32,000 bases of DNA from Thermofilum pendens Hrk 5 (lineage in GTDB: Archaea; Thermoproteota; Thermoprotei; Thermofilales; Thermofilaceae), in assembly GCF_000015225.1 (NCBI RefSeq), contig NC_008698.1, forward strand, positions 930,001 through 962,000. Direction: 5' to 3'. Positions 2 to 16,618 of this stretch are shown piece after piece (position 1 is the stretch's first letter; each line of letters opens with the position of its first letter). Below the pieces are notes generated by a model, which was given only the letters and a program-made list of their open reading frames with translations, ran no database searches and was not told the DNA's origin. A program made the position numbers and the translations under genes.

Positions 2-1495
2 GCATTATGTAAACAAATAAATTATGACAGTATTGTAACATCTACAGAGCCTGTACAGAAATTCATCCGAGAAACATTAGCGTTTAGAGGCATTGCTATG
101 ACATGGAACTGGGTAGAGGAGTTACCTGTAGCAGACGTTCTGGGTTCATATATAAGGTCGTTAAATTCCAGTGTTGGTAGCTTATCTTATCTTGTTTCTG
201 CTGTGTATGGTAGCCCTAGCAGGGTTAAGGTTTTGCTCGACGACGCTACAACTCTGGACATGCTTGTGGGCGAGAAGTTCGACCTGATAGTCACGGATCC
301 GCCTTACGCCGACGACGTGCCGTATACGGAGCTGAGCGACTTTTACTACGTGTGGCTCAAGAGAGCTTTAAGCGATGTCTCGGGCGGGAAGCTTATTCCC
401 AGATTTCTGCCGGAAGCCTTCTTTGACGAGTTCGGAGAGGAGATAAAGACTCAGTGGGAGACCTTTGCTACGAGAGAGGTCAGCGAGAATACTGAGCGTT
501 GGAAATACTTTAAGCTGAACATTTCCTTCAGTGAACTTCTGGCTAGGGCTTTTGCTAACGTTACAAGGTTCCTTGATGAAAAGGGTCTGCTGGTAACGTA
601 CTATGTTGCTAAGAAGCCGGAGGCTTGGGTAGCCTTGATAGATGCGCTCTGGCATATCAATGGTATGAGGGTTGTAGTTGCTTACCCCGTGGTTACGGAG
701 GCTGAAGAAAATGTGGTAGCAAGGGGAAGGGCGGCAGTGATGGGAGGCTATGTTATGGGATGGCGGAGGAGGGAGGTGGAGAAGCCCTTGGATCTCTCGA
801 GTGAGAAAGAGGCTGTTGTGACTACCGTCTCAGAGCGTCTAGGTAATTACTTAAAGGCCATAGATGTGAAGGAAGGTGCTACGGCGTGGGTTTATGCTTA
901 TCTTGCGGCTCTTAGCTATTTAACTTCTTTCTACCCCGTAAAGGATGGGGGCGTGGAGCTAGATGCTGAGGGTGTTGTTAGCCATGCGATGGCGTTGTCC
1001 TTTGAAGCTATGTTGAGGAAAGCTGGTGTAAACCTGCATGACCCGGCGGCGCTGGCATACCTTGCGCTGAGAGTTGTGGAGGATGAGAAGGGTAGGGTTG
1101 ACAGCGACGTGCTTTCTCGGGTGGCGTTAGGGCTTGGGATTAGAGACGTGGAGCTCGTTAAACTGGGGCTTGTCAGGGAGGTTCGGAGCGGAGGGCCTAA
1201 GGTGGCTAAGCGTAAGGTGTTCGAGGTTATGGCGCCCAGGAACGAGACGGTCGACGAGGTTAGGCGCGTGTTGTACCCGTTGCGGGGGAAAGCTCCTGTG
1301 CTGGAGTGTTTTAGGAATCTTCAGCTCTCGGTGCTAGCGAGAACCCAGGTATCCTGTGATCAGCGGGCTAGGGAGGAGGCGAAGGAGCTTGCAAAAGCTA
1401 TTGTAAGGCTTAGCGGGATGGGTCTTATTGACGAGGAGGATCCAGATGTTAGGCTTTCTAGGGCTGTGTTGGGTTTTGAGTGGTGGGAGCAATGA
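2..1495 (+). CDS. DUF1156-type N6-adenine DNA methyltransferase, C-terminal part (5' end runs off the window)
   Basis: Track ORF 98-1495. The same frame has no stop from nt 2 to the ATG at 98 (32 open codons in AT-rich sequence), so the gene probably starts upstream of the window. Motif IV 'LIVTDPPYADDVPYTELSDFYYVWLKR' (DPPY at nt 296-307) is the signature I associate with DUF1156/COG1743 methylases. No SAM-binding motif I is visible in-window, which fits truncation. Confidence 0.75.
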   Translation, partial: ALCKQINYDSIVTSTEPVQKFIRETLAFRGIAMTWNWVEELPVADVLGSYIRSLNSSVGSLSYLVSAVYGSPSRVKVLLDDATTLDMLVGEKFDLIVTDPPYADDVPYTELSDFYYVWLKRALSDVSGGKLIPRFLPEAFFDEFGEEIKTQWETFATREVSENTERWKYFKLNISFSELLARAFANVTRFLDEKGLLVTYYVAKKPEAWVALIDALWHINGMRVVVAYPVVTEAEENVVARGRAAVMGGYVMGWRRREVEKPLDLSSEKEAVVTTVSERLGNYLKAIDVKEGATAWVYAYLAALSYLTSFYPVKDGGVELDAEGVVSHAMALSFEAMLRKAGVNLHDPAALAYLALRVVEDEKGRVDSDVLSRVALGLGIRDVELVKLGLVREVRSGGPKVAKRKVFEVMAPRNETVDEVRRVLYPLRGKAPVLECFRNLQLSVLARTQVSCDQRAREEAKELAKAIVRLSGMGLIDEEDPDVRLSRAVLGFEWWEQ

Positions 1496-4400
1496 GTCTC
1501 GTGAATTTGCTTGCTGAGGGTAAGGTTAGCCCCGCGGTAGACATCTACGAGGTGTATAAGAGCCTCTTCAAGGGGGAAAAGCCTGAGAAGATCTACGAGC
1601 CTTACTGTGACCCCCGCTTGTTCTTCCAGCTGACGTTTGTGACGGACGGGTTTAAGCAGTACCTCGGCGATTTTCTCTCGAAGCTCGCGTCCGGAGAGTC
1701 TGAAGTGTACGTTATGCCGGCTCTTCTGGGGGCGGGTAAATCGCATTTCTTGGCTTTCGTACTGCATATACTCAGACTTTACAGGGATTGCAGGGGCGCT
1801 GGGGAGTGTGTCGAGAAAGCTTTGGAGGAGCTGGGAGTGAAGCTTAAAGTTCCCTCTCTCGAGAAGGTTCCCGAGGTTTTAGTGTTCCACGGGGAGCACA
1901 ACGTTGACCTTAAGCCGTTGGACTTTTCAAGCAAGGATACTCTTAAAGCCTCCTTGAAGCCCCCCGTGGTCTTGATATTCGACGAGACACAGCACTTCGA
2001 GGCAAAGATTCGTGACTTCCCGTTGCTCATGCAGATGCTCGCAGAGGCTGTCGAGGAGCGGAGGGGGGTCTTTCTCTTCGTGTCCTTCTCCCTATTCTCC
2101 GGTGAAAGACCGGATCTTGCGGCTCCCAAATCCTTGGATGCTGTGCGCCGTGTCCACTACGTGACCGTCTCGCTGGATGTAACGCGGAACATAGTCGAAG
2201 TATTCAGGAGGTGGGCAGGGCTTAGTGGCGCGAGAAGCGTGGAGCTAGCCGGGCTCAAGGGCATTGTAACCGATGAAAGGCTCAGGGAGTTTGAGAACAG
2301 GCTTCGAGGCTCCTACCCATTCAACCCGTACCTGCTGGATGCTGTTTTACAGCTTGCAGACGAGTCCCTAGTTGAGAAGACAAGGGTTCAGCTGACTAGA
2401 GGGCTTCTGAGGATACTGGCCTCTGCCTACGTTAACAGGAGAGGCGAATTAGTGATATTCGCAGATCTACCAGAGCCAAAAGAGGTAGTTATTGCCGGCG
2501 ATGTTTTTGCCGGGCAACTGAACGTCATCTTGAGGCTCTACGAGGACGACGCTAGGAAGGTTTCTGGAAGCATAGCTGCTCTTTCCGTGCTACGCCACAT
2601 TCTCCTTGCAACCTTCTTCGCCAGGCTTCTTCCACATCGTCGAATGTATCCAACCGAGGAGGAACTTATACTCGGTAGCTACGACCCGGCGAGGGTGAAG
2701 CCTCTTGACGTTAAGATGTTCCTCGAGGATGCCGCGAGGCAGGGCTTGCATATAGAGAAAGTCAACGGTCGCTACATGTACTGGTTCATCGGAGGCATAG
2801 AAGAGAAAGTCAGGGACGCCATGTACAGGTTCGGCGATGATGACGGACTTGAAGTGGCTACGGACGAGGTCGCAAGCCTTGCCAGGGAGAGGGCAGGACC
2901 TTTCTCGAGTGTAGTAATCGCGGGCGTCGGAGGTACTAAGGCTCTCGGCAAGGTTAAAGTCGTGTCGAGTAGGGACGAGTGGGAGAAAGAGCTAAAGGAT
3001 CAGGATAAGGCTATACTCGCTATAGACCTCCTTAACTTCGGAGTACCGGTTAAGCGGAATAATCTCATCGTTGTGAGAAGATACGATGAGGGAGAACCTC
3101 CGCAGACTACCTTAGAGCTGTTAAAAAGAGTAGGCGAGGGACCCAGAACTGTAAGGGAGGCTGTCGTGGATCTCGGACGCCTAGTAAAGGGGGTAGACGA
3201 GGTCTACGCGAACCTTATTGACTACTTCCCGGAACTTCTAGAGGAGGAGATGGAGGATATTCTTCGAAGGGAGTTGGAGCAACTTATTCGAGGAAGGCTT
3301 GAAAACCTGAAAAGCCGTGCAAAAGCGTACCTTAGGGAAAGCGTGGGGCTATGGTTGCGGCGTGGCGTTGTGGGCTTTAAAGACGTAGAGAAGCGCGGCT
3401 TCGACGAGTTGGTAGGAGAGCTTGTCAAAGATAAGAGAGACAGGCTTCGCGGAGTAGTCAAGGAGATATTCACGGGCGACCTTATAAACTGGGATAGCTT
3501 CAAGAAGGTTGGAGACCTTTGGAGCCTTTTCCTAAACAATGAATCATTCCCAGCGATTCCGGCGTCCTTCGAGGAGTTCCTAGAAGCACTGAGGGAGTAC
3601 TGCAAGGGTTGTAACTGTTTGTTCGAGGAGGATGGAGAGGTTAAGTGGCTCGGCGAGAATGGATGTGTCATGCCGGAGCTCGATAAAGACGTGGGTGTAG
3701 CGCCGTTCATGTACAAGAAGAGGGTTACAGAGTGGGCTGTCGAAGGTTTCTTGAAGCAATACGGGTCCTCGGCGAAAAGAAGGGTTTACATTGTGTATAG
3801 GAAGCCTAGCGGTCCGGAGGCTAGAGCGACCCCAGAGGAACTTTTGTCGAAGCAGAATGAATGGATTTACCTTGAGGGCGGGAGGCTTGAAATCGAAGAA
3901 GTCCAGAAAGGCATCTCGGTATCCGTGGATGGCGTGGAAACGGTGAGCGTGGAGAGGCCTAGAGGCGCCACAATACTGGTCGAGGTGGAGTCTTCCTATG
4001 ATTTGAAGAGCATCGAGTACACCTTGAATGGCGTGAAGAAAGTTTTCGACGTGAAGGGGAAGAGGCACGCCTTCAACGTGAAGGTTCCAGGAGAACCGGG
4101 TAGGTATGTTCTCAAAGTCAGAGCTGTTTTCGCCGACGATACCTTCGATGAGAGAGATGTGGCCATCATAGTGAGGGGGAAGTGTAAAAGAAAGATCACT
4201 GTCTTAAGCGTGAGCGTCGGAGAGGAAATAGTCGGGCTTAAAGCTGATACGGCTCAAGACGGGGAGATTCTTTTGAGGTACTTCAGGGATAGAGGGGTCC
4301 CGTTTAAGGCTACTGTATCCACTGAGTATAGCTATGGAGACGAGGAGATGATCGTTAACGTGAGGAAAAAGGTAAATAGTCCCGACGATGCAGACAAACT

Positions 4401-4551
4401 GCTCAAGATTCTTAAGGCAATTCAAGCGTTAACGCCTAACGCAGAGGTTACATTCGAGTTTATGGAGCCGCAGAAAGTGGACGAAGATATGGAGAAGAGG
4501 TTTAGGGGCCTTAAGGTTGTCTTTAGCGTAGAGCGGGAGGAGGAATGCTGA
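1492..4551 (+). CDS. large P-loop ATPase, DUF499/BrxC-like (~1019 aa)
   Basis: Track ORF 1480-4551 (GTG). The in-frame ATG at 1492 overlaps the methylase TGA as ATGA. Walker A 'PALLGAGKSHF' (GAGKS nt 1729-1743) and Walker B-like 'VVLIFDETQHF'. Size and position next to a DUF1156-type methylase fit the DUF499 family. Assignment rests on motif and context, not an HMM. Confidence 0.7.
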   Translation: MSLVNLLAEGKVSPAVDIYEVYKSLFKGEKPEKIYEPYCDPRLFFQLTFVTDGFKQYLGDFLSKLASGESEVYVMPALLGAGKSHFLAFVLHILRLYRDCRGAGECVEKALEELGVKLKVPSLEKVPEVLVFHGEHNVDLKPLDFSSKDTLKASLKPPVVLIFDETQHFEAKIRDFPLLMQMLAEAVEERRGVFLFVSFSLFSGERPDLAAPKSLDAVRRVHYVTVSLDVTRNIVEVFRRWAGLSGARSVELAGLKGIVTDERLREFENRLRGSYPFNPYLLDAVLQLADESLVEKTRVQLTRGLLRILASAYVNRRGELVIFADLPEPKEVVIAGDVFAGQLNVILRLYEDDARKVSGSIAALSVLRHILLATFFARLLPHRRMYPTEEELILGSYDPARVKPLDVKMFLEDAARQGLHIEKVNGRYMYWFIGGIEEKVRDAMYRFGDDDGLEVATDEVASLARERAGPFSSVVIAGVGGTKALGKVKVVSSRDEWEKELKDQDKAILAIDLLNFGVPVKRNNLIVVRRYDEGEPPQTTLELLKRVGEGPRTVREAVVDLGRLVKGVDEVYANLIDYFPELLEEEMEDILRRELEQLIRGRLENLKSRAKAYLRESVGLWLRRGVVGFKDVEKRGFDELVGELVKDKRDRLRGVVKEIFTGDLINWDSFKKVGDLWSLFLNNESFPAIPASFEEFLEALREYCKGCNCLFEEDGEVKWLGENGCVMPELDKDVGVAPFMYKKRVTEWAVEGFLKQYGSSAKRRVYIVYRKPSGPEARATPEELLSKQNEWIYLEGGRLEIEEVQKGISVSVDGVETVSVERPRGATILVEVESSYDLKSIEYTLNGVKKVFDVKGKRHAFNVKVPGEPGRYVLKVRAVFADDTFDERDVAIIVRGKCKRKITVLSVSVGEEIVGLKADTAQDGEILLRYFRDRGVPFKATVSTEYSYGDEEMIVNVRKKVNSPDDADKLLKILKAIQALTPNAEVTFEFMEPQKVDEDMEKRFRGLKVVFSVEREEEC

Positions 4552-4943
4552 TCCGAGCAATTAGAGGCGGGAGAGCTGTTAGGGTAAAGTGCGCAGAAGG
4601 TAGGTTCGAAGTTGGAGTGCCTTTCGAGGAGCTCTTCAGTTTTCTTGGCAGAATTTACCCCTGGGAGCTTGAAAGGCACATCGAGGTGGGAGATGGGGTG
4701 GCTGAGTTTAGGGAACGAATACCGTTTGAGAGGGCTCTCGCATACCTTTTGGCGCGTAGGGGCCGGCTTTCGCAGAAAGATGCCGAGCTAGTCGCCGCTG
4801 GTATTAGGCAACATGAGTTGTCGGCTATTGTGGACTCCTTTCTCTATAGGATGTGGCTCTGCAGGGTAGACGGTCGTAGCTGTAAGGAAGTGGTTGACGC
4901 TTTTTCCAAGATAGTTGCCGTGTACCGCAAGGTGCTCCCGTGA
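4545..4943 (+). CDS. small hypothetical protein (132 aa) between ATPase and helicase
   Basis: ATG 4545 overlaps the upstream stop (ATGCTGA, 4545-4551) and follows GGGAGGAGGA. Its TGA (4941-4943) overlaps the helicase start. No motif recognised. It sits where I recall DUF3780-like proteins in related operons (unverified). Confidence 0.6.
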   Translation: MLIRAIRGGRAVRVKCAEGRFEVGVPFEELFSFLGRIYPWELERHIEVGDGVAEFRERIPFERALAYLLARRGRLSQKDAELVAAGIRQHELSAIVDSFLYRMWLCRVDGRSCKEVVDAFSKIVAVYRKVLP

Positions 4944-7384
4944 TGGTATCCCTGATTGAGATACTGAGGTCTGCCGGCAAGGATCTCTACAAGCACCAGC
5001 TCGACTTTGTGTCTGATGCTCTGTGGTTTGACGAGCCCCGTATTCTCTTGGCTGACGACGTAGGGCTGGGTAAAACAATCCAGGCTCTCCTCTACATTAA
5101 GGCTCTCCTCGAGCTGGGGAGGGTGAACCATGTTCTAGTAATAGTGCCTCGTGCTGTCGTGGAGCAGTGGGCATCTGAGCTGGAGATGTTCGAGATACCA
5201 TTCTACATCGTGGAGTCGCCTGACTTCCCGCTGGGACACAGGGTCTACCTAGTCACCCTGGATAGAGCTAAGGTGGACAGCTACATGGAGGCTTTGGACA
5301 AGATAAACTGGGACTTGGTAGTTGTTGATGAGGCTCACAAGCTGAGGCTAGAGACGCTCAGGTCTAAGGTGGCTATTCTGTGTAGAAGGGCGAGGGGATG
5401 TCTTTTACTCACTGCTACTCCGCATACGGGCGACGAGAGTAGCTTCAAGTTCCTGATAGGACTCGCGAACAGCTATGTTGTACGGCGTGAAAAGAAGGAT
5501 GTGGAGGAGTATGAGGGGCGCAAGATATTCCCGTCTTTGGGGTACTGGATAGTGCAAGTGAAAGCAACGAAAGAGGAGAGTGACGCGCTTCATAAAGTGC
5601 TTAAATTCCTGGAAAACGATCAGATAGAGCAGATTGTGCGCGTAGTAGTGGAGAAGAGGGCGATGTCGAGCCCAACAGCGTTTTTCAAGACACTCGGAAA
5701 GGTTGTAGGAGGGTATTGCAGCGAAGAGTTACTGGAAGAGGGGGAGCTCGATGCCTGCATTGGTAACGTTGCCGGTGTAAAGAAGCTTGAGGAGCTCGCA
5801 AAGAAATATGCTAGCGCTGCCGACAGGAAGTTGGATGCTCTCGAAAAGTTGCTGAAGGATCACCTCAAGGGGAGAAAAGTACTTGTCTTCACAGAATATG
5901 CGACTACCGCCGAGTACCTATTTGAGAAGCTTGTTGAGAAGCTTGAGGGTTGTAAGATCGTAGATAGTGGGGAGGGCTACGCAAAGGCTGACTGTAGCGA
6001 GTTTGGAGTTATGTATGTTACAGCTAAGGCTAGGGACAGGATTGACGTAAGCAGGGAAGGCGCGCTCCTAGCGTCCGCGTATCCTACAGCTGTACTTATA
6101 TCCACGGACATAATGTCCGAGGGCGTAAACCTCCAGGCTTTCGATGTTGTTGTTAACTACGAGGTTGTATGGAGCCCGACAAAGCATGTGCAAAGGATAG
6201 GTAGAATCTGGAGGTTTGGACAGAAGGCAGAGAAAATACTAGTTATCGACATGGTTCTAAAGACTACTCTCTCGCAGGACGAATACAGCAACTATTTGAC
6301 TTTGTTGGAGAAATTGTACGAGATATCTCTCGCTGCCCTACCACCCCAGAGCTACGGCGAGTTCGAGATCTATGAGGTCGACCAAGAGCTCAGGAAGATA
6401 GTGGAGATAGGGTCTTCGGCTTATCTAGGAGAGGAGGAGGTCTACGAGGCTTTAAGGTCTGGTAGGCTGGAGGACCTGCGGAGCAGGATAAAGCGGATTC
6501 TCAAAGCTAAAGAGAACATGAGGTGGAAGAGCAGGAATGAGGTGGATGAGGGTTTACGCGTAAAGCTTGGCTACCCACCGGAGAAGAAGCCGGAGCCCGG
6601 GGGAGGATACTATGTTGCCAACGTTACTTTTGAGCGTAACGGAGTGAAGCTTTACTCCGAGCGTATACTCCTAAGGTTGCCAACACCGCTGAGTAGAAGT
6701 AGGTCGGTACAGGAGGGGGTCTTCAGAGAGCTGGAAGTTCCCTGGGATGCAGTAGTAGAGGATACTGGGTCGCTCAAGGAAGACGAGAGAGAGGAGGTTA
6801 ATCGTATGGTGTGGATCGAGGTATGGCATCCACTGCAGCAGTACCTTTCAAGAAACAACCTTCCCGAAGGTGGTATTAACGTAGAAGTAAAACGTGCAAG
6901 GGTAGAGTCTATAGGGGTTGCAGAGCTAATACCCGTTACCTTGAGCTTCGAGGAGCTTGTCGAGAGAGAAGTGAGGTACAGTAGGAACAGGGAGCGCACA
7001 GAAAGGGCTGCTGCTAGATGCATCAGGAGTTTACTCGAAAATCTGGGCTATACAATTGTGGAGGAATATGCGAGTATTCCTCGACCCTTCGACATGGTGG
7101 TGAAAAAGGACGGCATTCTTTACACGGTGGAAGTCAAAGGTAAATGGGTTGGGAAGCGTGATGAACCGTTATCCTTCACTGCGAATGAGATTGACTGGGC
7201 TTCGAGGTTCCCAGATAGGCACATTGTGTGCATAGCATACGTGGACAGAGATTACTGTGAAGACGTGGAGTGCTACTACTTCAATGAATTTCAGAAGAAA
7301 TGGGTTCTGGAAACTGTGAGAGGAATAGAGTACAAGTATAACGCTAGGAAAAAAAAGGGAGCCGACAAAACCGAACCTCAATAG
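4943..7384 (+). CDS. SNF2-family helicase with C-terminal PD-(D/E)xK (DUF3883-like) nuclease domain
   Basis: Motif I 'DDVGLGKTIQAL' (GLGKT nt 5063-5077), motif II 'VVVDEAHKL' (DEAH nt 5327-5338), 'LLLTATPHTGDE', 'ISTDIMSEGVNLQ', 'VQRIGRIWRFGQ'. C-terminus: 'PFDMVVKKDGILYTVEVKGK...LSFTANEIDWA' (D nt 7091-7093, EVK nt 7130-7138). Start is ATG 4943 (TGATG overlap) or GTG 4940. Confidence 0.85.
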   Translation: MVSLIEILRSAGKDLYKHQLDFVSDALWFDEPRILLADDVGLGKTIQALLYIKALLELGRVNHVLVIVPRAVVEQWASELEMFEIPFYIVESPDFPLGHRVYLVTLDRAKVDSYMEALDKINWDLVVVDEAHKLRLETLRSKVAILCRRARGCLLLTATPHTGDESSFKFLIGLANSYVVRREKKDVEEYEGRKIFPSLGYWIVQVKATKEESDALHKVLKFLENDQIEQIVRVVVEKRAMSSPTAFFKTLGKVVGGYCSEELLEEGELDACIGNVAGVKKLEELAKKYASAADRKLDALEKLLKDHLKGRKVLVFTEYATTAEYLFEKLVEKLEGCKIVDSGEGYAKADCSEFGVMYVTAKARDRIDVSREGALLASAYPTAVLISTDIMSEGVNLQAFDVVVNYEVVWSPTKHVQRIGRIWRFGQKAEKILVIDMVLKTTLSQDEYSNYLTLLEKLYEISLAALPPQSYGEFEIYEVDQELRKIVEIGSSAYLGEEEVYEALRSGRLEDLRSRIKRILKAKENMRWKSRNEVDEGLRVKLGYPPEKKPEPGGGYYVANVTFERNGVKLYSERILLRLPTPLSRSRSVQEGVFRELEVPWDAVVEDTGSLKEDEREEVNRMVWIEVWHPLQQYLSRNNLPEGGINVEVKRARVESIGVAELIPVTLSFEELVEREVRYSRNRERTERAAARCIRSLLENLGYTIVEEYASIPRPFDMVVKKDGILYTVEVKGKWVGKRDEPLSFTANEIDWASRFPDRHIVCIAYVDRDYCEDVECYYFNEFQKKWVLETVRGIEYKYNARKKKGADKTEPQ

Positions 7385-7443
7385 CTGGGAGGAAAAGGAG
7401 AGTATCGAAGAATTCATGCTTTCTTGTCTCAATGGAGCTGACG

Positions 7444-7450
7444 TATAATA
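7444..7450 (+). promoter_or_regulatory. TATA-like box (TATAATA) upstream of M48 protease gene
   Basis: A/T box 19-25 nt upstream of the GTG at 7469, spacing compatible with a leaderless archaeal transcript. Confidence 0.3.
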
Positions 7451-7468
7451 GAACCTAATTCATTTTCG

Positions 7469-8407
7469 GTGTACTCATCGAGGGTTTTTTATGGGACTAC
7501 ACCTTGGGTAATGTTGAGCATGGAGATGCTTGTGCTCGCAACGTCTGTGATGATGGTGTTTGCGACTACCTTTGCATATTTCGCGGCGATGCATGGAGGG
7601 TTTAAGCGCCTTGAGCATGTCTTAGTGTTTCGTATCCTTATTGTGTTGGGGCTTGTTGCGGCGTTACTTGTTTTCGTGCCTCACATGGTGTGGTACTGTG
7701 CGTTGGAAGCTTCCCGTATGCCAGTTGCCGCCGCTATAATCGCTCTTGTGTACTTCTCCTCTTCTCCTCTGATGGAGATTATAAGGCTACGCCGCGCGAA
7801 GAAGTTGGAGAAGCGGTATGTTGAGATCGGAGGGCGTGGTTACGAGTACTGGGTTGTGGATTCTGATGTGCTGAACGCATGCCGAAAGGGCAGGGAGATC
7901 TGTGTCACAAGGAAGCTTGCAGAAGTGTTCGAAGTTGACGAGCTGAAAGTCGTCCTCCTTCATGAGGAGGGGCATGATGGCATATTCGATAAGGTCGTGG
8001 TTGTAGGGAGGATTATTCTCCTTTCTTCTCTAATTATTCTTATCACGGATGCTTTTATGCTGGACGCGGAGATGTTTTTCTCTTCCCTCTCTGCGTACTT
8101 ATTGGCCATTCCTGCTGCTACCCTTGCTAGCTGGGTCAACGAGCATGTAGCTGATCTTAACGCGGCAAAGATGTTCCCTCCTGAGCTAGTTGTGAGAACC
8201 TTTGTGAAGTTTTGGGCATGCGCCGTATTACGCGATTTGTGCACCAGGGAGGTTGTGAATGTGGTTGTCTTTAAGAACATTCAGGAACCTACGTTCCGAA
8301 AAGTTTTGTGGGAGGTGGCTAGATCGATGTTGGATAGTTTGAGGGGAAATCTCTCTATACACCCTCCACCGAGGTTCAGAATATACGCTGTTCTTGTACG
8401 TACATGA
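7469..8407 (+). CDS. integral-membrane zinc metalloprotease, M48 (HtpX/Ste24-like) family
   Basis: Several hydrophobic segments. 'LKVVLLHEEGHD' holds the HExxH motif (nt 7961-7975). Downstream 'NEHVADLNAAK' matches the E-x-x-A-D third-ligand motif of M48 peptidases. GTG start at 7469; alternative ATG at 7511. Confidence 0.7.
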   Translation: MYSSRVFYGTTPWVMLSMEMLVLATSVMMVFATTFAYFAAMHGGFKRLEHVLVFRILIVLGLVAALLVFVPHMVWYCALEASRMPVAAAIIALVYFSSSPLMEIIRLRRAKKLEKRYVEIGGRGYEYWVVDSDVLNACRKGREICVTRKLAEVFEVDELKVVLLHEEGHDGIFDKVVVVGRIILLSSLIILITDAFMLDAEMFFSSLSAYLLAIPAATLASWVNEHVADLNAAKMFPPELVVRTFVKFWACAVLRDLCTREVVNVVVFKNIQEPTFRKVLWEVARSMLDSLRGNLSIHPPPRFRIYAVLVRT

Positions 8408-8590
8408 AAGGTTTGAAATTTTTCTTGCAGAGAAATTACTAGACGCGGGCTTAATTTTCTAAGAACAGCGACATCGCTGAAGGAGCTCGAGTTTCAAGCT
8501 AGGCCTGCCTCGGTGCTTCCTGTTCACTCTTCTTACCCGAGGCTCGTGGCGGAGGTTGCGCAGAAGGCGAGTGTGAGGGTTTTCAGGCAG

Positions 8591-8780
8591 GGGGTTTAGC
8601 CGCTGTGTGGGGGTGGTTGTTTTGCGGCGAGGTTTTGGGCTGGAATGTGTGGAGAAGCTTTCGGCGGTGTTAGGGGGATTTTGGCTGTGGGTTGTGTGTT
8701 CGAGGATTTTGGGGCGTAGGGCTGGGTTGCGGAGGTTGTTGAATTTTTGGGTTGTTGTGGCTTGTTGGCGTGTTGTTTTC
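8591..8780. repeat. strand-asymmetric G+T-rich tract with reiterated RRTTTTGG(G/C) motifs
   Basis: Hand count over 190 nt: G~86, T~72, C~17, A~15 (~83% G+T on the + strand). 'gaggttttgggctgg' (8629-8643), 'ggattttggctgtgg' (8677-8690), 'gaggattttggggcg' (8702-8716), 'gaatttttgggttg' (8741-8754). 'gcggaggttg' recurs at 8549-8558 and 8729-8738. Lies directly upstream of the ParA-like gene. Confidence 0.6.
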
Positions 8781-8786
8781 AAAAAG

Positions 8787-8796
8787 TTTTAAGTAT
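8787..8796 (+). promoter_or_regulatory. TATA-like box (TTTTAAGTAT) upstream of ParA-like gene
   Basis: A/T box 28-37 nt upstream of ATG 8824; GAGG lies 4 nt before the ATG. Confidence 0.3.
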
Positions 8797-8823
8797 TGTT
8801 TTGAGTTTTAATTTTTGAGGCTG

Positions 8824-9723
8824 ATGAAGGCGGTTACTTTCCTCAGCGTGAAGGGTGGCGTTGGGAAGACTACGCTCGCTGTTAACACCGCGGCTATGCT
8901 TGCCGATAGAGTTGGGGGTAGCGAGAAGGTTCTCGTCGTGGACTTGGATGCCCAGGCGAGCGCCACCGTGTATATTCTTGGGCATAAAAAGCAGAGAGGC
9001 TTTGAGGAAAGCAACCACACGGTCTACGGGTTGCTGAGTGGGGGTGTAGAGGCGCGTGACTGTGTGGTTAACGTCTCTGAGCATACGGATAAGTGGAGTT
9101 CTAGGCTTTACCTTGTCCCGGGGGACTCGAGGGTCACTGAGCTTGAGAGGAGGATAGTTGCGGAGAGTGCGGCGGGGGGTTACGGTTGGCTGTATATCGT
9201 TAGAAGGGCTCTCGAGAAGCTATCCGGGGAGGGCTTCAGCTATGTTTTCATAGATCCTCCGGCTACGCTGGGTGTTCTTTCTGAGGCGGCGCTTGCGGCT
9301 TCGAGGTACTTTATACTCCCCATAGTTCCCGACGACTTTGGTCGTACGTCGTTCAGGCTCTTCGCGAGCAGCTTCTTCAGCGGAGTTGCTATGAAGATCA
9401 GGACTGAGCTGGGCACGTTGCCTCTCTGTGGAGGCATAGTCTTCAATAAAGTGAAGTCAAATACTGCTATGGAGAAAATAGCCAATAGTATAGTGGAGGA
9501 GGTGCACAAGAGTAAGTTGTACGGCAAGTACCCGATTCCTTTGTATAAGACAAGGTTACATGAATATATAGCCTATACAAAATCTCTTGAAGAGCATGTC
9601 CCGTTGTGGAATATTAAAGAAAAGAAAAAACATGAGAATGCTATAAAAGAGTTCGAAGAATACTTCGATGAGTTCTACGAGTACGTTGTAAGGGATAAAG
9701 CGGCAGCAGGCGGGCAGGTTTGA
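8824..9723 (+). CDS. ParA/MinD-family P-loop ATPase (module 1)
   Basis: Deviant Walker A 'SVKGGVGKTTLAVN' (nt 8851-8874), 'VLVVDLDAQASAT', 'YVFIDPPATLG'. Track ORF starts at TTG 8815; the in-frame ATG at 8824 is more plausible. Confidence 0.8.
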   Translation: MKAVTFLSVKGGVGKTTLAVNTAAMLADRVGGSEKVLVVDLDAQASATVYILGHKKQRGFEESNHTVYGLLSGGVEARDCVVNVSEHTDKWSSRLYLVPGDSRVTELERRIVAESAAGGYGWLYIVRRALEKLSGEGFSYVFIDPPATLGVLSEAALAASRYFILPIVPDDFGRTSFRLFASSFFSGVAMKIRTELGTLPLCGGIVFNKVKSNTAMEKIANSIVEEVHKSKLYGKYPIPLYKTRLHEYIAYTKSLEEHVPLWNIKEKKKHENAIKEFEEYFDEFYEYVVRDKAAAGGQV

Positions 9724-11712: not shown

Positions 11713-12048
11713 TTAGCCTACCTTGATCATCGCTTTGCCGGCCCACCTCGCTAGCTCCTCTCTGCTCGCTACGTGTATCTCTACGGGCGCGTCTACTGGG
11801 AGCGAGTACTTCTCGACTGCCCTGTCGACTATGTCCGCCGGGAGGTACTTCCTGTCCTCGTTGCCCGCCTTCTCCAGCACTACGAGGATGTCTATGTCGC
11901 TAAGCACGGTGGCCCTGCCCTCGGCGACGCTCCCGACAACGTATACCTCGGCGTCCGGCCTCAGGTCCTTAGCCGCCTTGGCGACGGCCTCGGCGTACTC
12001 GCGCCACCTCCTCAAGTGCGCGAAGTGGTACTTAACCCAGCTTGACAT
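11713..12048 (-). CDS. minimal nucleotidyltransferase (MNT), HEPN-partner type
   Basis: 'VYVVGSVAEGRATVLSDIDILVV' carries the GS...DxD pol-beta NTase motif. ATG 12048 overlaps the upstream HEPN gene by 17 nt (track start 12063). Confidence 0.8.
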   Translation of the reverse strand: MSSWVKYHFAHLRRWREYAEAVAKAAKDLRPDAEVYVVGSVAEGRATVLSDIDILVVLEKAGNEDRKYLPADIVDRAVEKYSLPVDAPVEIHVASREELARWAGKAMIKVG

Positions 12049-12448
12049 TCTCGGCGACCTCATCGAGTAGCTTGATCAAGTCTTTAACGGTGGCCGCGAG
12101 CCTTTCGACGTCCTTCGCCGAGTACTCGGCTTCGCCGTACCTGCTAGCGGTGTACGCTTCTTCGAGCAGTACGAGCTCCCTCCTCCTGCCGTCGACGAAG
12201 CCCAGGATCCTCCCCGCGGCCTCGCCGAAGCCGTAGGACTCGAGCTCCCTGGCGAGGAGCCCCAGTAGCTCCCTCACTCCGTGCCCGCGAGTCTCCCTGC
12301 CTACGAGCTCGAGTAGCGTAGCCTTCACGTAGAGCTGGGCCGCCTGCTCCAGGAAGAACGCCGCGAGATCCGCGTTCTTTGCGCTTAGGGCTTCGTCGAG
12401 GAAGTCCAGCGCTCTTCTCTTAAGCCTGGCTACGAGCTCTCCGCTCAT
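12032..12448 (-). CDS. HEPN domain protein
   Basis: 138 aa, all-helical character. 'RETRGH' fits the Rx4-6H HEPN motif. Directly upstream of and overlapping an MNT gene. TATA-like 'ttattctatagcc' (minus strand) ~25 nt upstream. Confidence 0.75.
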   Translation of the reverse strand: MSGELVARLKRRALDFLDEALSAKNADLAAFFLEQAAQLYVKATLLELVGRETRGHGVRELLGLLARELESYGFGEAAGRILGFVDGRRRELVLLEEAYTASRYGEAEYSAKDVERLAATVKDLIKLLDEVAENVKLG

Positions 12449-12564
12449 TCACTGTTAGCGGGGTGAAGGCTATAGAATAACGTTTCGCAGAGCCTCGAAG
12501 AGCTCCCAGGTGGAAGCGGCTTCTTCGGCTTCCAGGCCCACGGCGTGTTTCCGCCGGCGCCGCG

Positions 12565-13056
12565 CTACTTCTCGCGCGTTCCGAGCGCCTTCACGAATAT
12601 CGCCGGTAGGACCTCCCTGGCGAGGAGGACGGGTACTATGAACACGTTGCGCCCCTCTACGGGCTCGAAGCCGAGCCTCCTCTCGAATTCCCTCCTGGTA
12701 GCCTCCTTCCTCAACCCGTTCGAGAGCCTCCGCGGCGCGTTCGTTACTACGACCACGGTGAACGCTACGTCCCCGTACCTCGACCTGTACTCCTCTACGA
12801 GCCCCTCTAGCCTGGAGCAGAGCGCCCCGAAGTACCTTGCGGCGCCCCCGGTGTCGTGGCCTACTTCTATCTCGACGAACATCACCGCGTCTACCTTGCC
12901 CCCAGAGCTGTGCTCGATAACCACGTCTGGCCCCCTGGCCTGCCCCGGGGAGGCTTTAACGCTCCACCCGAACACCTCGGCGAGTATCTTCACGTACTCG
13001 ACCGTGAAGTCGTGCAGAGTCTCCCTCGACATACCCTGAGCCTGGAGTTCCTTCAA
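12565..13056 (-). CDS. hypothetical protein (weak restriction-endonuclease-like motif)
   Basis: 163-aa ORF with high GC3. 'GPDVVIEHSSGGKVDAVMFVEIEVGHD' loosely resembles a D...ExE/K nuclease core, but it is not diagnostic. Start is TTG 13056 or ATG 13032. Confidence 0.5.
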   Translation of the reverse strand: MKELQAQGMSRETLHDFTVEYVKILAEVFGWSVKASPGQARGPDVVIEHSSGGKVDAVMFVEIEVGHDTGGAARYFGALCSRLEGLVEEYRSRYGDVAFTVVVVTNAPRRLSNGLRKEATRREFERRLGFEPVEGRNVFIVPVLLAREVLPAIFVKALGTREK

Positions 13057-13092: not shown

Positions 13093-13102
13093 TTAAATAT
13101 TT
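13093..13102. promoter_or_regulatory. near-palindromic A/T box (TTAAATATTT) in divergent intergenic region
   Basis: The only A/T-rich element in the 77-bp spacer between 13056 (-) and 13134 (+). It sits 32-41 nt from ATG 13134; GGTGAG lies 6 nt upstream of that ATG. Confidence 0.35.
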
Positions 13103-13133
13103 CGTGAATTATCACGTAAATCGGTGAGACGGG

Positions 13134-13385
13134 ATGGGTTGGGGTTGGTGGGGTGGGTGGCCTGGTAGGGGTCCTTTCAGCTACCTGCCGCCTTGGCAGA
13201 GGCCCGGCTGGGTGTTCGGTAGGGGTGCTTGCTGGTGGCTGCTAGGCGGACCCTGGACGCCGTGGACATACTACCCATGGACACCTTACTACTCCGCACC
13301 ATACTACTATGCATACTACCCAACGCCCTACTACCCGGCGCCGTACGCGTACTGGCAGGCTAGGTACTGGTGGCCCTGGTGGTGA
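13134..13385 (+). CDS. Trp/Tyr/Pro/Gly-rich micro-protein (83 aa)
   Basis: ATG preceded by GGTGAG and a TATA-like box. First gene of a co-directional cluster. 16 W + 15 Y in 83 aa, with no D/E/K/H/I/N. Its coding status is not proven. Confidence 0.5.
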   Translation: MGWGWWGGWPGRGPFSYLPPWQRPGWVFGRGACWWLLGGPWTPWTYYPWTPYYSAPYYYAYYPTPYYPAPYAYWQARYWWPWW

Positions 13386-13390
13386 GCTGG

Positions 13391-13606
13391 ATGTACTGGT
13401 ACTACTACTTCCCGGGTGGCTGGTACCCGCCGTACTGGTACCCGGTGCCTTACCCTGACCCAGTGTCCCTGATGTACGCTTGGTCCTACATGTGGTCCTA
13501 CTGGCTCTCAACGATATACTACATCGAGATGTACAAGGCGATGCTGGAGGCTTGGAGGAAGATGGTCGAGGCAACGTTCAAGGCTCCCGTAGTACCCACG
13601 GGGTAG
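13391..13606 (+). CDS. Tyr/Trp/Pro-rich micro-protein with C-terminal helix (71 aa)
   Basis: ATG 13391 follows GGTGGTGA (which includes the upstream stop) by 5 nt; track start is GTG 13370. 14 Y + 7 W. Ends in an ordinary amphipathic stretch 'IEMYKAMLEAWRKMVEATFK'. Confidence 0.45.
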   Translation: MYWYYYFPGGWYPPYWYPVPYPDPVSLMYAWSYMWSYWLSTIYYIEMYKAMLEAWRKMVEATFKAPVVPTG

Positions 13607-13621: not shown

Positions 13622-14056
13622 TTGGGCTACGGGTACGGTAGGCGAGGGTGGGGAGGCTTTGAGGGCGGCGCCTCCTGGGCTTCGGCGCAGATGCCGCCGC
13701 TACCCCCTCCTCCCCCTGGGACGCTAAGGGTCGCCGCGGGCACGGATACGGCGGACGGGCTCAACGCCCCCGTGTCGGCGAGGTTTGCCAGGACGCCCTT
13801 CCTGACCATTGTGGACATCGTGGACGGGAGGGCTACGAGGGTCGAGCCCATGCCTAACGCCTTCGCATCAGGCGCCGGCGGCGTCGGCGCTGCTGTCGGG
13901 CAGTGGCTCCTGAGCTCCGGTGTCAGCGTGGTCGTAGCCCCGAGCCTGGGCCCGAACATCTCGATGATCTTGGGGCAGGCGGGCGTCAGGGTCGAGGTCG
14001 TGCCTCCCGGCGTCCCCCTGGGCGAGGCGTTGAAGAGGCTGGGCCTGCTGAGGTGA
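13622..14056 (+). CDS. NifX/NifB-C-terminal-like (FeMo-cofactor-binding fold, COG1433-like) protein
   Basis: 'APVSARFARTPFLTIVDIVDG...GAGGVGAAVGQWLLSSGVSVVVAPSLGPNISMILGQAGVRV' matches the NifX-family pattern. TTG start gives a Gly/aromatic N-terminal tail 'GYGYGRRGWGGFEGG'. Alternative ATG at 13691. Confidence 0.7.
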   Translation: MGYGYGRRGWGGFEGGASWASAQMPPLPPPPPGTLRVAAGTDTADGLNAPVSARFARTPFLTIVDIVDGRATRVEPMPNAFASGAGGVGAAVGQWLLSSGVSVVVAPSLGPNISMILGQAGVRVEVVPPGVPLGEALKRLGLLR

Positions 14057-14928
14057 TTTTTTTGGAGGTAGTCGTGGCGAGCGGGAAGGGGGGTACTGGT
14101 AAGACTTTTTTCTCTTCTAACCTCGCCGTCTACCTGCGGGACAGGGGAGGCTGCGTAGCGGCGGACGCCGACGTGGAGGCGCCGGACTTCCTGCTCGCGC
14201 TCGGCGGGGCCCGGAGGGTTCTCTGGAGGGAGGAGTTCCGGGGGGTTAGGCGCCCCGTGGTGGACTACTCTGCCTGCGTCAAGTGCTGGGCGTGCGTGGA
14301 TGCCTGCCAGTTCAACGCTATCCGGAGGGGGCCGGAGGGACCCGTCGTGGACTACGATAGGTGCGAGGGCCTCGGGACGTGCGCGTTCGTCTGCCCAGCC
14401 GGGGCTATAGGCTTCGCGGAGGAGAGGGCCGGCGAGATCTACGCCGCCGAGACGGAGCACGGTGTCACCGTGGTTACCGGGGACCTCGAGCTGGGGGGAG
14501 GCGCTAGCGGTAGGCTGGTCTACGAGCTCAAGGAGAGGGCCCGCAGGCTCTCGTCCGGGGCGGCGAGGTACGTCGTCGTCGACGCGGCGCCGGGGATCGG
14601 GTGCCCCGTGGTGTCGAGCGTCGCTGGGGCCGACTTGCTGGTCGTAGTGGTGGAGCCTACTCCTCAGTCCGCGAAGGGCGCCGCGCGGCTCCTCGAAGTC
14701 GCGGGGGCTCTGCGCGTAAAGGCGGTAGCCGTTGTCAACAAGTACGACTTGAACCCGAGCTACGCGGCGAGGCTCGAAGGAGAGCTCGGCGTGGATGTCG
14801 CCGGGCGAATACCGTACGACGAGGCGGTGGCGCGCTCCTACGCCGAGATGAAGCCCCTCATAGTTGCGTACCCCTCCTCCAAGGCGGCGCGGGCGCTCCT
14901 AGACGTCTTCTCATCGCTGGGGGTGTGA
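14053..14928 (+). CDS. MinD/ParA-type P-loop ATPase with inserted ferredoxin domain (COG1149-like)
   Basis: GTG 14053 overlaps the upstream TGA (GTGA). The track ORF's earlier start (13903) would overlap the NifX-like gene out of frame. 'ASGKGGTGKTF' Walker A, 'CVKCWACVDAC' and 'CEGLGTCAFVCP' cluster motifs, 'VVVDAAPGIGCP'. Confidence 0.8.
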   Translation: MIFLEVVVASGKGGTGKTFFSSNLAVYLRDRGGCVAADADVEAPDFLLALGGARRVLWREEFRGVRRPVVDYSACVKCWACVDACQFNAIRRGPEGPVVDYDRCEGLGTCAFVCPAGAIGFAEERAGEIYAAETEHGVTVVTGDLELGGGASGRLVYELKERARRLSSGAARYVVVDAAPGIGCPVVSSVAGADLLVVVVEPTPQSAKGAARLLEVAGALRVKAVAVVNKYDLNPSYAARLEGELGVDVAGRIPYDEAVARSYAEMKPLIVAYPSSKAARALLDVFSSLGV

Positions 14929-14931
14929 ACT

Positions 14932-15810
14932 GTGGTGAAGGTAGTCGCGGTTACGGGCGGTAAGGGAGGGACGGGGAAGACGGTGGTGGCAGCCAGCCTG
15001 GCGAGGCTCCTGAGCGATGCCGGCGCGAGAACCCTCCTCGTCGACCTCGACGTGGAGAACCCCTGCTCCTACACCCTCCTGGGCGCCGAGCTCGGCTCAG
15101 CAGAGGAGGTAGCGCTTTTCAGCCCCGTGATCGTCGAGGAGAAGTGCACGTTGTGCGGAGCCTGCGCCTCCGCCTGCCCAGCTCACGCCCTCGTGTTAAT
15201 CCCGGGGAAGCGCCTCCTGTTCCTGGAGCCCCTATGCGAGTCCTGCGCCACGTGCCTCTACGCGTGCCCCGCCGGCGCGGTTGCGAGGGGGAGGAAGGTC
15301 GTCGGCTGGGTGAAGAAGGGGCGCGCGGGGGGCGTGGACCTCGTGGTGGGGGAGCTGAAGCCCGGTAGCAGGCAGCACCACGAGGTGATGGAGAGGACGC
15401 TGGACTACGCGTCGAGCACTTGGAACGGCTACGACGTAGCGGTCCTGGACCTACCGCCTGGATCCGGGAAGGGTATCCGCTCCGCGTTGAAGCGCGCCGA
15501 CCTAGCGCTCCTAGTCGCCGAGCCGACGCGGCTAAGCCTCGCCGACACTCGGAGGGTGCACAGCCTCGCCAGGGAGGCGGGCGTGAGAGAGGTCCTCGTC
15601 CTCAACAAGTACGGGCTTCCGGGCGGCGTGGACTCGGAGATAGAGGCCTTCGCAGCCAGCGAGGGGCTCGCGCTAGTGAAGGTCAGGTACGACTCGGCGC
15701 TCGCGGAGGCCTACGCGAGGGGAGAGCTCGTAGTCGGGAGCAAAGCCCCCTCGGCCGCCGACCTCGCGGAGCTGGCGAAAACGGTGGCGCAGCTCCTCGG
15801 GCTTCGGTAG
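14932..15810 (+). CDS. MinD/ParA-type P-loop ATPase with inserted 2x[4Fe-4S] ferredoxin domain (COG1149-like)
   Basis: 'VTGGKGGTGKTV' Walker A, 'CTLCGACASACP' and 'CESCATCLYACP', 'AVLDLPPGSG'. GTG start 3 nt after the upstream stop. Confidence 0.85.
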   Translation: MVKVVAVTGGKGGTGKTVVAASLARLLSDAGARTLLVDLDVENPCSYTLLGAELGSAEEVALFSPVIVEEKCTLCGACASACPAHALVLIPGKRLLFLEPLCESCATCLYACPAGAVARGRKVVGWVKKGRAGGVDLVVGELKPGSRQHHEVMERTLDYASSTWNGYDVAVLDLPPGSGKGIRSALKRADLALLVAEPTRLSLADTRRVHSLAREAGVREVLVLNKYGLPGGVDSEIEAFAASEGLALVKVRYDSALAEAYARGELVVGSKAPSAADLAELAKTVAQLLGLR

Positions 15811-16162: not shown

Positions 16163-16618
16163 ATGTTGCTGGAGGGTGTTAAGAGCAGGCTTTCCTCTCT
16201 GAGAGATCCCTGCGTAAAAGCTGTGCTCGTGTTTGGGTCTGTGGCTAGGGGTGAGCAGGGCGAGAGGAGCGACTTGGACTTGCTTGTCCTCCACGAGGGG
16301 TGCGCTATCGAAGACCCCGTCGCTAGGAGGAGGTATTTCTACGCCCTTCTGAGGGAGGCTGTGGGAGACCTCTTCGAGGATCTGACGGTGCTGGACATGG
16401 AGCTTAAGCGCTTCCTGGAGCCCGGGGAGGTTTCGCCTCTCCTCCTGAACGTGTACTGGGACGCCGTCGTGGTCTACGACGCTACGGGGCTCGTCGAGGG
16501 CTTCCTGAGGCGCGCGAGGGAGGGGATTGTGAGGAGTGGGTTGAGGAGGGTTAAGGACGGAAAGGCTTACCGCTGGATCCTCCCAAAGCCGGCGGGGGTG
16601 GTCAGGGTACTTGATTAA
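16163..16618 (+). CDS. minimal nucleotidyltransferase (MNT)
   Basis: 'AVLVFGSVARGEQGERSDLDLLVL' carries GS...DxD. TATA-like box 28-34 nt upstream of the ATG. Overlaps the downstream HEPN gene by 8 nt. Confidence 0.8.
   Translation: MLLEGVKSRLSSLRDPCVKAVLVFGSVARGEQGERSDLDLLVLHEGCAIEDPVARRRYFYALLREAVGDLFEDLTVLDMELKRFLEPGEVSPLLLNVYWDAVVVYDATGLVEGFLRRAREGIVRSGLRRVKDGKAYRWILPKPAGVVRVLD

Follow-up and report, generated by a model that had tools for sequence, protein, structure and literature searches.

Two tandem tryptophan- and tyrosine-rich microprotein genes head a NifX-like/MinD-ferredoxin operon in Thermofilum pendens and recur as a pair in other archaea

The operon considered here lies in a stretch of 32,000 nucleotides of the Thermofilum pendens Hrk 5 genome (contig NC_008698.1, positions 930,001 to 962,000), hereafter called the window, to which all positions refer unless a related locus is named; it begins with two very small open reading frames (ORFs), followed by the genes of a NifX-like protein and of two MinD-type ATPases carrying ferredoxin domains. 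Comparison with other archaeal genomes shows that these two ORFs, ORF1 (13134..13385, + strand, 83 amino acids, protein A) and ORF2 (13391..13606, + strand, 71 amino acids, protein B), are real genes forming a conserved archaeal pair, and it makes us almost certain that both are translated, probably as separate, translationally coupled microproteins. Protein A joins a DUF5320-like core to a hyper-aromatic tail, and protein B joins a Tyr/Pro/Trp-rich head to what is predicted to be one long helix; ORF2 founds a separate, previously unannotated family.

Both proteins have an extreme composition. Read from its ATG, protein A contains 16 Trp, 15 Tyr, 15 Pro, 11 Gly and one Cys, with no Asp, Glu, His, Ile, Lys or Asn at all; it has no acidic residue and an isoelectric point (pI) of 9.3. 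Protein B contains 14 Tyr, 9 Pro and 7 Trp when read from the ATG at 13391 (GTG codons at 13370 and 13379 are alternative starts), and its frame is +2 relative to that of ORF1, with the ATG 5 nucleotides past the ORF1 stop codon. An initial annotation, made from the letters of the sequence alone, had given these lengths, the Trp and Tyr counts and the residues missing from ORF1, and translation bears them out for both ORFs. Among the 233 stop-to-stop segments of at least 60 amino acids found in the six frames of the window, the combined fraction of Trp and Tyr is 0.365 in ORF1 and 0.275 in ORF2, versus 0.106 for the next highest segment and a median of 0.031; such a composition is far outside chance. 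The aromatic tails are not tandem repeats at the DNA level, the sole array being a 9-bp unit repeated 3.2 times at 13131-13160. ORF1 has apparently never been called by gene finders, and its exact sequence was not found in a collection of 15 billion proteins in which ORF2 and ORF3 of the same genome are present. Neither ORF has a match in Pfam or NCBIfam, neither family matches the PDB in profile searches, and a literature search on the core peptide of protein A returned nothing relevant.

Relatives of protein A are numerous: a protein search returned 246 of them, 65-132 amino acids long and mostly unnamed or hypothetical, and when one genome per species was scanned for the pattern, 231 genome stretches turned out to encode such a protein. 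Judging from record titles, they belong to Thermoproteota (Thermofilaceae, Desulfurococcales), Bathyarchaeia, Methanomethylicota, Hadarchaeota, Thermoplasmata, Thermococci and Methanocellales. They have in common the nearly invariant core WPGRGPFSYLPPWQRPGW-FGRG(A/S)CWW, most simply written with the end FGRGACWW. In protein A, which starts with a Gly/Trp-rich segment, this Arg/Gly/Pro/Trp core covers residues 9-35 (WPGRGPFSYLPPWQRPGWVFGRGACWW; 13158..13238, + strand), has 23 positions invariant over 23 sequences from several archaeal phyla and holds the sole Cys of ORF1, ORF2 and ORF3 taken together. For comparison at the nucleotide level, we used 80 related loci chosen by their similarity to ORF1, a choice that biases the proportions of the gene architectures counted below. 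Over 21 core codons in these 80 loci, differences at codon positions 1, 2 and 3 amount to 0.081, 0.044 and 0.481 per site, respectively, and the invariant Pro and Gly residues use all four of their synonymous codons; differences so dominated by the third position, together with the full use of synonymous codons, show strong purifying selection in the ORF1 frame.

The remainder of protein A is a Trp/Tyr/Pro-rich tail ending in PWW (residues 36-83; 13239..13382, + strand), for which AlphaFold2 gives a predicted local distance difference test score (pLDDT) below 50; the whole of ORF1 reaches 49 with no confident fold, and protein A is predicted to be disordered. The WW C-terminus recurs among its relatives; the aromatic segments are poorly conserved in sequence and in length, only their composition being kept. 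We call A-type any gene encoding the invariant core followed by an aromatic tail. A Bathyarchaeota locus (L078, around 5001-5099) contains an ORF1-type gene with an in-frame TAG inside the core (...RPGWL*GRGACWWL), which might reflect a pseudogene, an error in sequencing or the recoding of this codon.

Finding the relatives of protein B depended on the search used. A word-indexed protein search with ORF2 gave only ORF2 itself, and a genome contig search with a 75-amino-acid version of it returned nothing; a phmmer scan of 1.84 billion protein representatives yielded 15 representatives of about 60-75 amino acids, and tblastn against the 80 syntenic loci placed a homologue directly downstream of an ORF1-type gene in 14 of them. 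We define a B-type gene as one that encodes an aromatic head, a DP motif and a helix with the pattern YYxE...WRK..E, located at most about 30 nucleotides after an A-type gene on the same strand. With a hidden Markov model (HMM), B-type genes were recovered in 40 of the 80 loci and in the window, always on the same strand as the A-type gene and immediately after it, with none elsewhere in the loci, and iterating the model did not enlarge the family beyond 41 members; the A-B pair so defined is thus present in the window and in 40 of the 80 loci. The nearest homologues of protein B come from Thermofilaceae and related Thermoproteota. Some database entries for this family (P0131, P0135 and P0124) are over-extended and read through the A gene out of frame.

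All members have the same layout, with a Tyr/Pro-rich head (M-x-YPYY...), an invariant DP motif and a segment containing YYxE...WRK..E; D23, P24, Y43, Y44, W55 and E60 are invariant. In that segment, differences at codon positions 1, 2 and 3 are 0.248, 0.226 and 0.541. The initial annotation had made frame-specific conservation in syntenic regions a test of its reading, and both reading frames are indeed conserved there according to tblastn, the HMM searches and the codon-position differences. AlphaFold2 models protein B as a single alpha-helix over residues 24-64 (13460..13582, + strand; mean pLDDT 77, and 94-96 in the helix centre), with the DP motif (residues 23-24) at its N-terminal end and a disordered head. 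The first half of the predicted helix is uncharged and aromatic, and the second half, which carries YYxE...WRK..E, is amphipathic, in agreement with the amphipathic helix that had been read at the end of ORF2. The maximum mean Kyte-Doolittle hydropathy over 19 residues is 0.53 in ORF2 and below 1.6, well under transmembrane values, in all 20 family members considered, so that the helix is not a classical transmembrane one.

Could the two ORFs be something other than a gene pair? The +2 frame of ORF2, its start 5 nucleotides after the ORF1 stop and the aromatic character of both halves would fit one gene broken by a frameshift, whether through a sequencing error, a pseudogene or programmed frameshifting, and whether relatives encode both as one protein was also a question raised by the initial annotation. 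They never do: no fused ORF1+ORF2 protein is among the database matches, and the two-cistron arrangement is found in 40 other loci, where B lies in relative frame 0, 1 or 2 with respect to A depending on the locus, and where the two share a frame a stop codon still intervenes. Moreover, ORF1 ends at the WW terminus typical of its family, and the homologues of ORF2 begin with their own Met after a spacer of 16 nucleotides (median). We consider the frameshift explanation as already refuted by these comparative data, with practically no probability left to it, and the same can be said of the idea that both ORFs are compositional artefacts, the real feature being either an ORF on the antisense strand or a leader of the NifX operon that does not code for protein. 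The absence of ORF1 from gene finder output would suit the latter, as would an antisense frame that stays open for 110 amino acids (13242..13574, − strand); however, the longest antisense open stretch is well under the whole region in most related loci, where the frame is broken, and its exact sequence was not found in the 15-billion-protein collection. The purifying-selection signal is specific to frame and strand and lies in the + frames, the protein core of 27 residues is invariant across archaeal phyla, and neither a tRNA nor an Rfam feature was found in the window. In keeping with the initial annotation, which had dismissed it, the antisense ORF exists but is not a gene, its frame being kept open by the codon bias of the sense strand; conservation refutes this explanation as well, and we leave it a negligible chance.

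The core of protein A leads to DUF5320 (PF17253), a family of small proteins that start with a Gly/Arg-rich segment bearing a Cys and end in a coiled coil (profile positions ~57-99). ORF1 has the N-terminal Gly/Arg/Pro motif with the conserved Cys, and the NifX-like and MinD-ferredoxin genes with which DUF5320 is associated stand next to it in the operon; it lacks the coiled coil and ends instead in the 48-residue Trp/Tyr/Pro tail. ORF1-type proteins have in fact tails of two kinds, either a short Tyr/Pro linker followed by a coiled coil or an aromatic tail as in ORF1. Those of the coiled-coil type score 30.7-36.3 bits against PF17253, above the Pfam gathering threshold of 27 bits, with matches reaching profile positions 18-22, and the core of protein A aligns with them in hhalign at 99.9% probability (E = 1e-33), the cores being clearly homologous. 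In general, composition can inflate the scores of coiled-coil and low-complexity alignments. By direct profile comparison, no match to PF17253 at E <= 1 was obtained for ORF1, for ORF2 or for the aromatic-tail relatives P0001 and P0015, so that membership of the Pfam family, as such, was not borne out for either ORF and the relation of the ORF1 core to DUF5320 goes through the coiled-coil-type proteins. Protein A shares with these proteins the 27-residue core, the company of NifX-like and MinD-Fer4 genes and the upstream operator described below. Descent of protein A from a DUF5320-type ancestor seems to us highly probable. A literature search on DUF5320 gave nothing relevant.

A third family of small proteins, here called B' and represented in most of the related loci, completes the picture. 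B' is the next gene in aromatic-tail loci without a B gene, and it encodes an Arg/Trp-rich head, a Pro/Gln linker and a coiled coil (...PEEELEMLEDYKKALEE...VEERIKELK); examples are found at L049 5426-5806, L021 2258-2593, L027 4818-4477 (− strand), L052 1474-935 (− strand) and L011 5187-5471. B' aligns with the tails of coiled-coil-type A proteins (hhalign, 98.4%), matches PF17253 at positions ~57-99 (63, 35 and 33 bits for three members, 21-24 bits for others) and is fused to the NifX domain in L010, L042, L051 and L056, the two being joined by GYGWGRGRG and poly-Pro segments. These three observations together identify B' as the C-terminal half of DUF5320, which thus exists either as one gene or as A + B'. 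Proteins combining PF17253 and PF02579 (P0171-P0174 and P0178) are further NifX-DUF5320 fusions; with the operon context, they uphold the statement in the initial annotation that DUF5320-type proteins accompany NifX-like and MinD-ferredoxin genes. In two Methanomethylicota loci (L024 and L070), the gene directly after the ORF1-type gene encodes an Mrp/NBP35-like iron-sulfur (Fe-S) carrier ATPase, in place of B or B'.

ORF2, for its part, has no detectable homology to the coiled-coil tails or to B' (hhalign, 1.6% and 2.7%), and its family has no counterpart in DUF5320. We had considered ORF2 as a stand-in for B', a possibility now ruled out as the B' HMM finds B' in 32 of the 40 loci with a B-type gene, where it follows B in 19 and lies upstream in the others (divergent in 8, on the same strand in 5). 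This coexistence and the lack of homology make B an additional, lineage-restricted third component. The earlier proposal of a split, aromatic version of the DUF5320 partner therefore holds for the ORF1 core and for the existence of a split form (A + B'), but ORF2 is not the coiled-coil half. Hyper-aromaticity goes with the split architecture: the median aromatic fraction is 0.44-0.54 in the A tails of split forms, versus 0.15-0.17 in the linkers of single-gene forms, and it is 0.49 in the B heads. Since single-gene relatives do without dense aromatics, these residues are tied to the split architecture rather than to the core function.

Downstream of the pair, ORF3 (13622..14056, + strand) encodes a NifX-like protein (PF02579, E-value 1.1e-13) without Cys and with a pI of 10.2, whose relatives in the PDB are MTH1175 (1eo1, E = 1.9e-10), 1rdu and the orange protein ORP (2wfb, E = 4.4e-4). 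It starts with a GYGYGRRGWGG segment followed by a PPLPPPPPG extension. Databases contain two versions of ORF3 with different starts, of 144 and 121 amino acids; we favour the longer one because its GYGYGRRGWGG/poly-Pro extension is conserved in some relatives (tblastn matches from query residue 1-9) and the B'-NifX fusions carry such a segment. ORF4 (14053..14928, + strand; Pfam CbiA, Fer4 and ParA), the GTG start of which overlaps the ORF3 stop (GTGA), encodes a P-loop ATPase of the MinD/ParA type into which a 2x[4Fe-4S] ferredoxin domain is inserted (Orp3/Orp4 and SipB type), and ORF5 (14932..15810, + strand; Pfam CbiA/ParA and Fer4), the last gene of the operon, is a second MinD-ferredoxin paralogue. 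The genes of the operon overlap or are separated by gaps of 0-15 nucleotides, as tightly packed and co-directional as had been described. The order NifX-MinD-MinD recurs in related loci. NifX-like genes are found in 41 of the 80 (on the same strand in 34) and MinD-Fer4 genes in 24. Other recurrent neighbours are genes for a metallo-beta-lactamase-fold protein (18 loci), FeoB (8), a radical SAM protein (8), a DtxR-type repressor (7) and FeoA (7).

Upstream of ORF1, the sequence reads as a TATA-like box of the operon promoter (TTAAATA, 13093..13099, + strand), a palindromic, operator-like site (CGTGAATTATCACG, 13103..13116) and a Shine-Dalgarno-like GGTGAG (13123..13128, + strand), and a start signal for ORF2, GGTGGTGA, overlaps the ORF1 stop 5 nucleotides before the ATG of ORF2; the TATA-like box and both start signals are as described initially. 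GGTGA-type motifs occupy the same place in most related loci, and the succession of TATA box, palindrome, Shine-Dalgarno motif and ATG is alike in related loci and in the IssA promoters of Thermococcales. Aligned regions upstream of A-type genes give the consensus ATTTTGTGCAATAGCACAAAAT for the palindrome, abutting or overlapping the TATA box. The pattern GTG-N6-CAC is present within 200 nucleotides upstream of A in 59 of 77 loci, across all gene architectures, at a density of 4.29 per kb versus 0.15 per kb elsewhere in the loci, i.e., a 29-fold enrichment; the strict form TTGTGC-N4-GCACAA (up to 1 mismatch) has 44 copies upstream of A and 12 at other places, and among these 12 several precede separate NifX-like or MinD genes. 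In the window, CGTGAATTATCACG occurs once, against 0.04 expected, and is a degenerate, still symmetric copy of TGTGC-N4-GCACA.

The same palindrome, likewise located just after the TATA box, also precedes the IssA/SipA homologues of T. cleftensis (TGTGCATATGCACA; L082 3967-3980), T. guaymasensis (TGTGCATATGCACA; L083 3961-3974) and Pa. pacificus (TGTGCATATGCTCA; L081, about 3961-3976). Sulfide induces the gene sipA only if iron is sufficient (PMC5524996); together with the shared operator, this suggests a response of A-type genes to the same signal, a link drawn from these three Thermococcales promoters and the related loci. A literature search on the operator returned nothing relevant.

The resemblance to IssA goes beyond the promoter. 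In P. furiosus, IssA consists of a NifX-like domain and a disordered, cationic, aromatic and Gly-rich C-terminal tail that holds its sole Cys and has been proposed to wrap anionic thioferrate (PMC5524996); SipA of Pa. pacificus (PAP_06520) is strongly induced by elemental sulfur (PMC6981617). The tails of the Thermococcales IssA homologues, PAP_06520 among them, read ...GWGRGRGWGRGGRGWGARLGYCPWTG-P-RR....GWW. Protein A displays the same chemistry (cationic, aromatic, one Cys and a WW end), ORF3 has the NifX-like globular domain of the IssA clade (IPR003731/PF02579), and MinD-type ATPases are neighbours in both cases, SipB being annotated as an ATPase C-terminus (PMC4463584); for that same reason, we dropped SipB as a candidate A-type protein. 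The difference is that the tail-like chemistry is carried here by separate polypeptides, namely ORF1 and the N-terminus of ORF3, in which the Gly/Arg/aromatic segment is N-terminal and not C-terminal. The IssA-like protein encoded beside the A-type genes of four Thermococci loci has another kind of tail, not a Gly/Arg one, in all of them (4/4), and no A-type core is found near the gene in the 3 Thermococcales genomes whose IssA has such a tail; this complementarity agrees with a tail acting “in trans”, in a sample too small to prove anything. Two loci labelled as Thermococci, L064 (4971-5192 and 5243-5431) and L046 (3965-4126 and 4285-4395), contain two tandem ORF1-type genes after the IssA-like gene, the product of which has a Cys-rich tail (HKDCIHYKNGKCEFWN...PACPFF...WRWW) in place of the Gly/Arg one. 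The T. aggregans group, which also carries A-type genes, has an IssA-like protein (P0140) whose Cys-rich, non-Gly/Arg tail is like that of the four loci above. The gene that follows the Gly/Arg-tailed IssA homologue in T. cleftensis (L082 4647-4880) and T. guaymasensis (L083 4665-4901) encodes 77-78 amino acids with a DUF5320-like MPRGMGRGYGR start and two hydrophobic helices.

The gene set also resembles that of the ORP complex of Desulfovibrio, in which a single-domain NifX-like protein stands beside two paralogous MinD-type ATPases with two 4Fe-4S motifs each (PMC6345978); Orp8 and Orp3/Orp4 have their equivalents in ORF3, ORF4 and ORF5, a set which likewise matches the sulfur-induced SipA/IssA and SipB of Thermococcales (PMC5524996, PMC4463584). 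A homologue of MrpORP (Orp9) was not found in the operon, which gave only weak, partial NCBIfam matches far below cut-off. Expression signals differ too, with an archaeal TATA box and another palindrome here versus sigma-54/OrpR in Desulfovibrio, and the ORP literature searched describes no equivalent of the small partners A and B. Orp5/Dde_3197 was considered as a link to DUF5320 and dropped, its reported best similarity being 41.3% to a NifX-type protein (FeMo-cofactor biosynthesis).

Taken as a whole, the reading we favour, and to which we give reasonable though far from full credit, is that A, B and B' serve as accessory or scaffolding subunits of the neighbouring system for storing or assembling iron sulfide, which is of the IssA/SipA-SipB and ORP type. 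That A and B act as subunits of the NifX/MinD-Fer4 machinery is its more probable part, and for the iron-sulfide role itself our belief and our doubt are evenly balanced. Protein A corresponds to the N-terminal half of a DUF5320-type protein, with the Trp/Tyr/Pro tail in place of linker and coiled coil. By analogy with what is proposed in cis for the IssA tail, its cationic, aromatic and Cys-bearing core might work in trans, contacting and organising the anionic iron-sulfide species held by the NifX-like domain, and the helices of B and B' may oligomerise the assembly. The aromatic segments (tail of A, heads of B and B') could serve as a non-covalent glue replacing the covalent linker after the split, an idea we find somewhat less than evenly supported. 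Expression is probably controlled by a putative factor binding TGTGC-N4-GCACA beside the TATA box, an element common to the IssA/SipA promoters.

The low-complexity, Tyr/Arg/Gly “sticker” domains of FUS and other RNA-binding proteins of eukaryotes come to mind here, with aromatic and Arg/Gly/Pro residues, predicted disorder and a composition kept without the sequence. The likeness is only an analogy, as the present proteins are prokaryotic, hyperthermophilic, 70-85 amino acids long and attached to a helix and to an invariant core that folds or binds. The fullest form of the favoured reading, which we regard as unlikely but worth stating, would make A, B and B' the matrix proteins of a split, multi-subunit, thioferrate-like storage particle, a protein-mineral condensate in which heat-stable Trp/Tyr/Pro/Arg segments both bind the subunits to one another and act as a template for an anionic inorganic polymer on the NifX-like domain, and in which a putative, widely conserved iron/sulfide-responsive regulator acting at TGTGC-N4-GCACA switches the set on with IssA. 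The handling of iron sulfide is something that a sulfur-respiring hyperthermophile would need.

Several observations weigh against the subunit reading and should be kept in mind. NifX or MinD genes lie within 5 kb in only about half of the related loci, and the operator copy of the window is degenerate, with 5 of the 12 consensus positions changed. The B' HMM found no B' gene within the 32-kb window, so that the system may be reduced or in partial decay in this genome, and the coiled-coil alignments that define B' are of the kind that composition can inflate. ORF1 and the IssA tails align at 1.6% only in hhalign; with a resemblance confined to composition and no detectable homology, the comparison is an analogy only. 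The definition of the IssA-clade tail in Vaccaro et al. 2017 requires a pI of at least 9, a Cys count below 5 and, over the last 40 residues, 20% Gly or more, and against that definition ORF3 has no such tail, since it ends with the NifX domain and has about 15% Gly in its last 40 residues. The Desulfovibrio ORP complex has been linked to cell division and not to storage (PMC6345978).

Other roles for the pair can be envisaged. Trp and Tyr favour membrane interfaces, and residues 24-44 of protein B are uncharged and rich in Trp, Tyr, Leu, Met and Ile; A and B might thus be associated with the membrane or envelope, the first half of the B helix lying in or on the membrane and interfacial Trp/Tyr anchors holding the NifX-like protein and the MinD-type ATPases at the membrane or at a cell pole. 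MrpORP is located at a cell pole in Desulfovibrio (PMC6345978), and the small MPRGMGRGYGR protein that comes after IssA in Thermococcus has two hydrophobic helices. However, the hydropathy maxima given above are low throughout the B family, signal peptides are missing from both A and B, the coiled coils of the related B' partners are of an ordinary, soluble kind and IssA particles are cytoplasmic (PMC5524996), so that we judge this explanation improbable. Still less credible is a regulatory function, in which A and B would serve as, for example, an anti-repressor or a sensor reporting sulfide or Fe-S status through the invariant Cys. The single invariant Cys in an invariant cationic motif, the tight linkage to a conserved operator and a first-gene position that fits autoregulatory logic are all compatible with it, but Pfam, NCBIfam and PDB profile searches found no DNA-binding or known sensor fold in A or B, and the B'/DUF5320 segments are fused to NifX domains and not to regulators. 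As for electron transfer through aromatic stacks, which had been evoked in the initial annotation, the extreme aromatic density next to proteins with 4Fe-4S ferredoxin domains might evoke a hole-hopping wire of Trp/Tyr arrays between these domains and a partner. Nothing else speaks for it: the aromatic segments keep their composition only, neither sequence nor length, they are predicted to be disordered (including ORF1), and single-gene relatives manage without aromatic tails (fraction 0.15-0.17); we consider this wire very improbable.

If the subunit reading is right, two or three unrecognised small subunits are to be added to the NifX-like/MinD-ferredoxin systems (IssA, ORP), which many anaerobes possess. 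Gene finders overlook a microprotein that ranks among the most conserved of this module in archaea. DUF5320 is dissected into a core, a linker and a coiled coil, and its natural split and fused forms indicate which parts should interact. The hyper-aromatic segments offer a testable idea, that of a non-covalent glue working at about 90 °C, and the operator common to the IssA/SipA promoters provides a handle on the regulator of the iron-dependent sulfide response in Pyrococcus.

The surroundings of the operon in the window call for a few further remarks. A gene of 163 amino acids (12565-13056, − strand), divergent from ORF1, has no Pfam or PADLOC match and faces an ORF of equal length on the opposite strand (12545-13039). 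An overlapping pair of HEPN and minimal nucleotidyltransferase genes (11713-12448, − strand) lies just upstream of the operon, and another nucleotidyltransferase gene is found just downstream of it (16163-16618, + strand); since relatives have B' at this flanking place, it may have been displaced by an insertion or rearrangement. Further upstream, the region 98-9723 (+ strand) has a lower GC content (0.48-0.54 versus about 0.62 in the rest of the window), a strong GC skew and Hma-like defence genes. These encode part of a DNA methylase of the DUF1156 type (HmaB-like, truncated by the start of the window), a DUF499 AAA+ ATPase (HmaC-like) and a helicase of the SNF2 type (HmaA/DrmD-like), and genes for an M48 peptidase and a ParA-like ATPase come after them.

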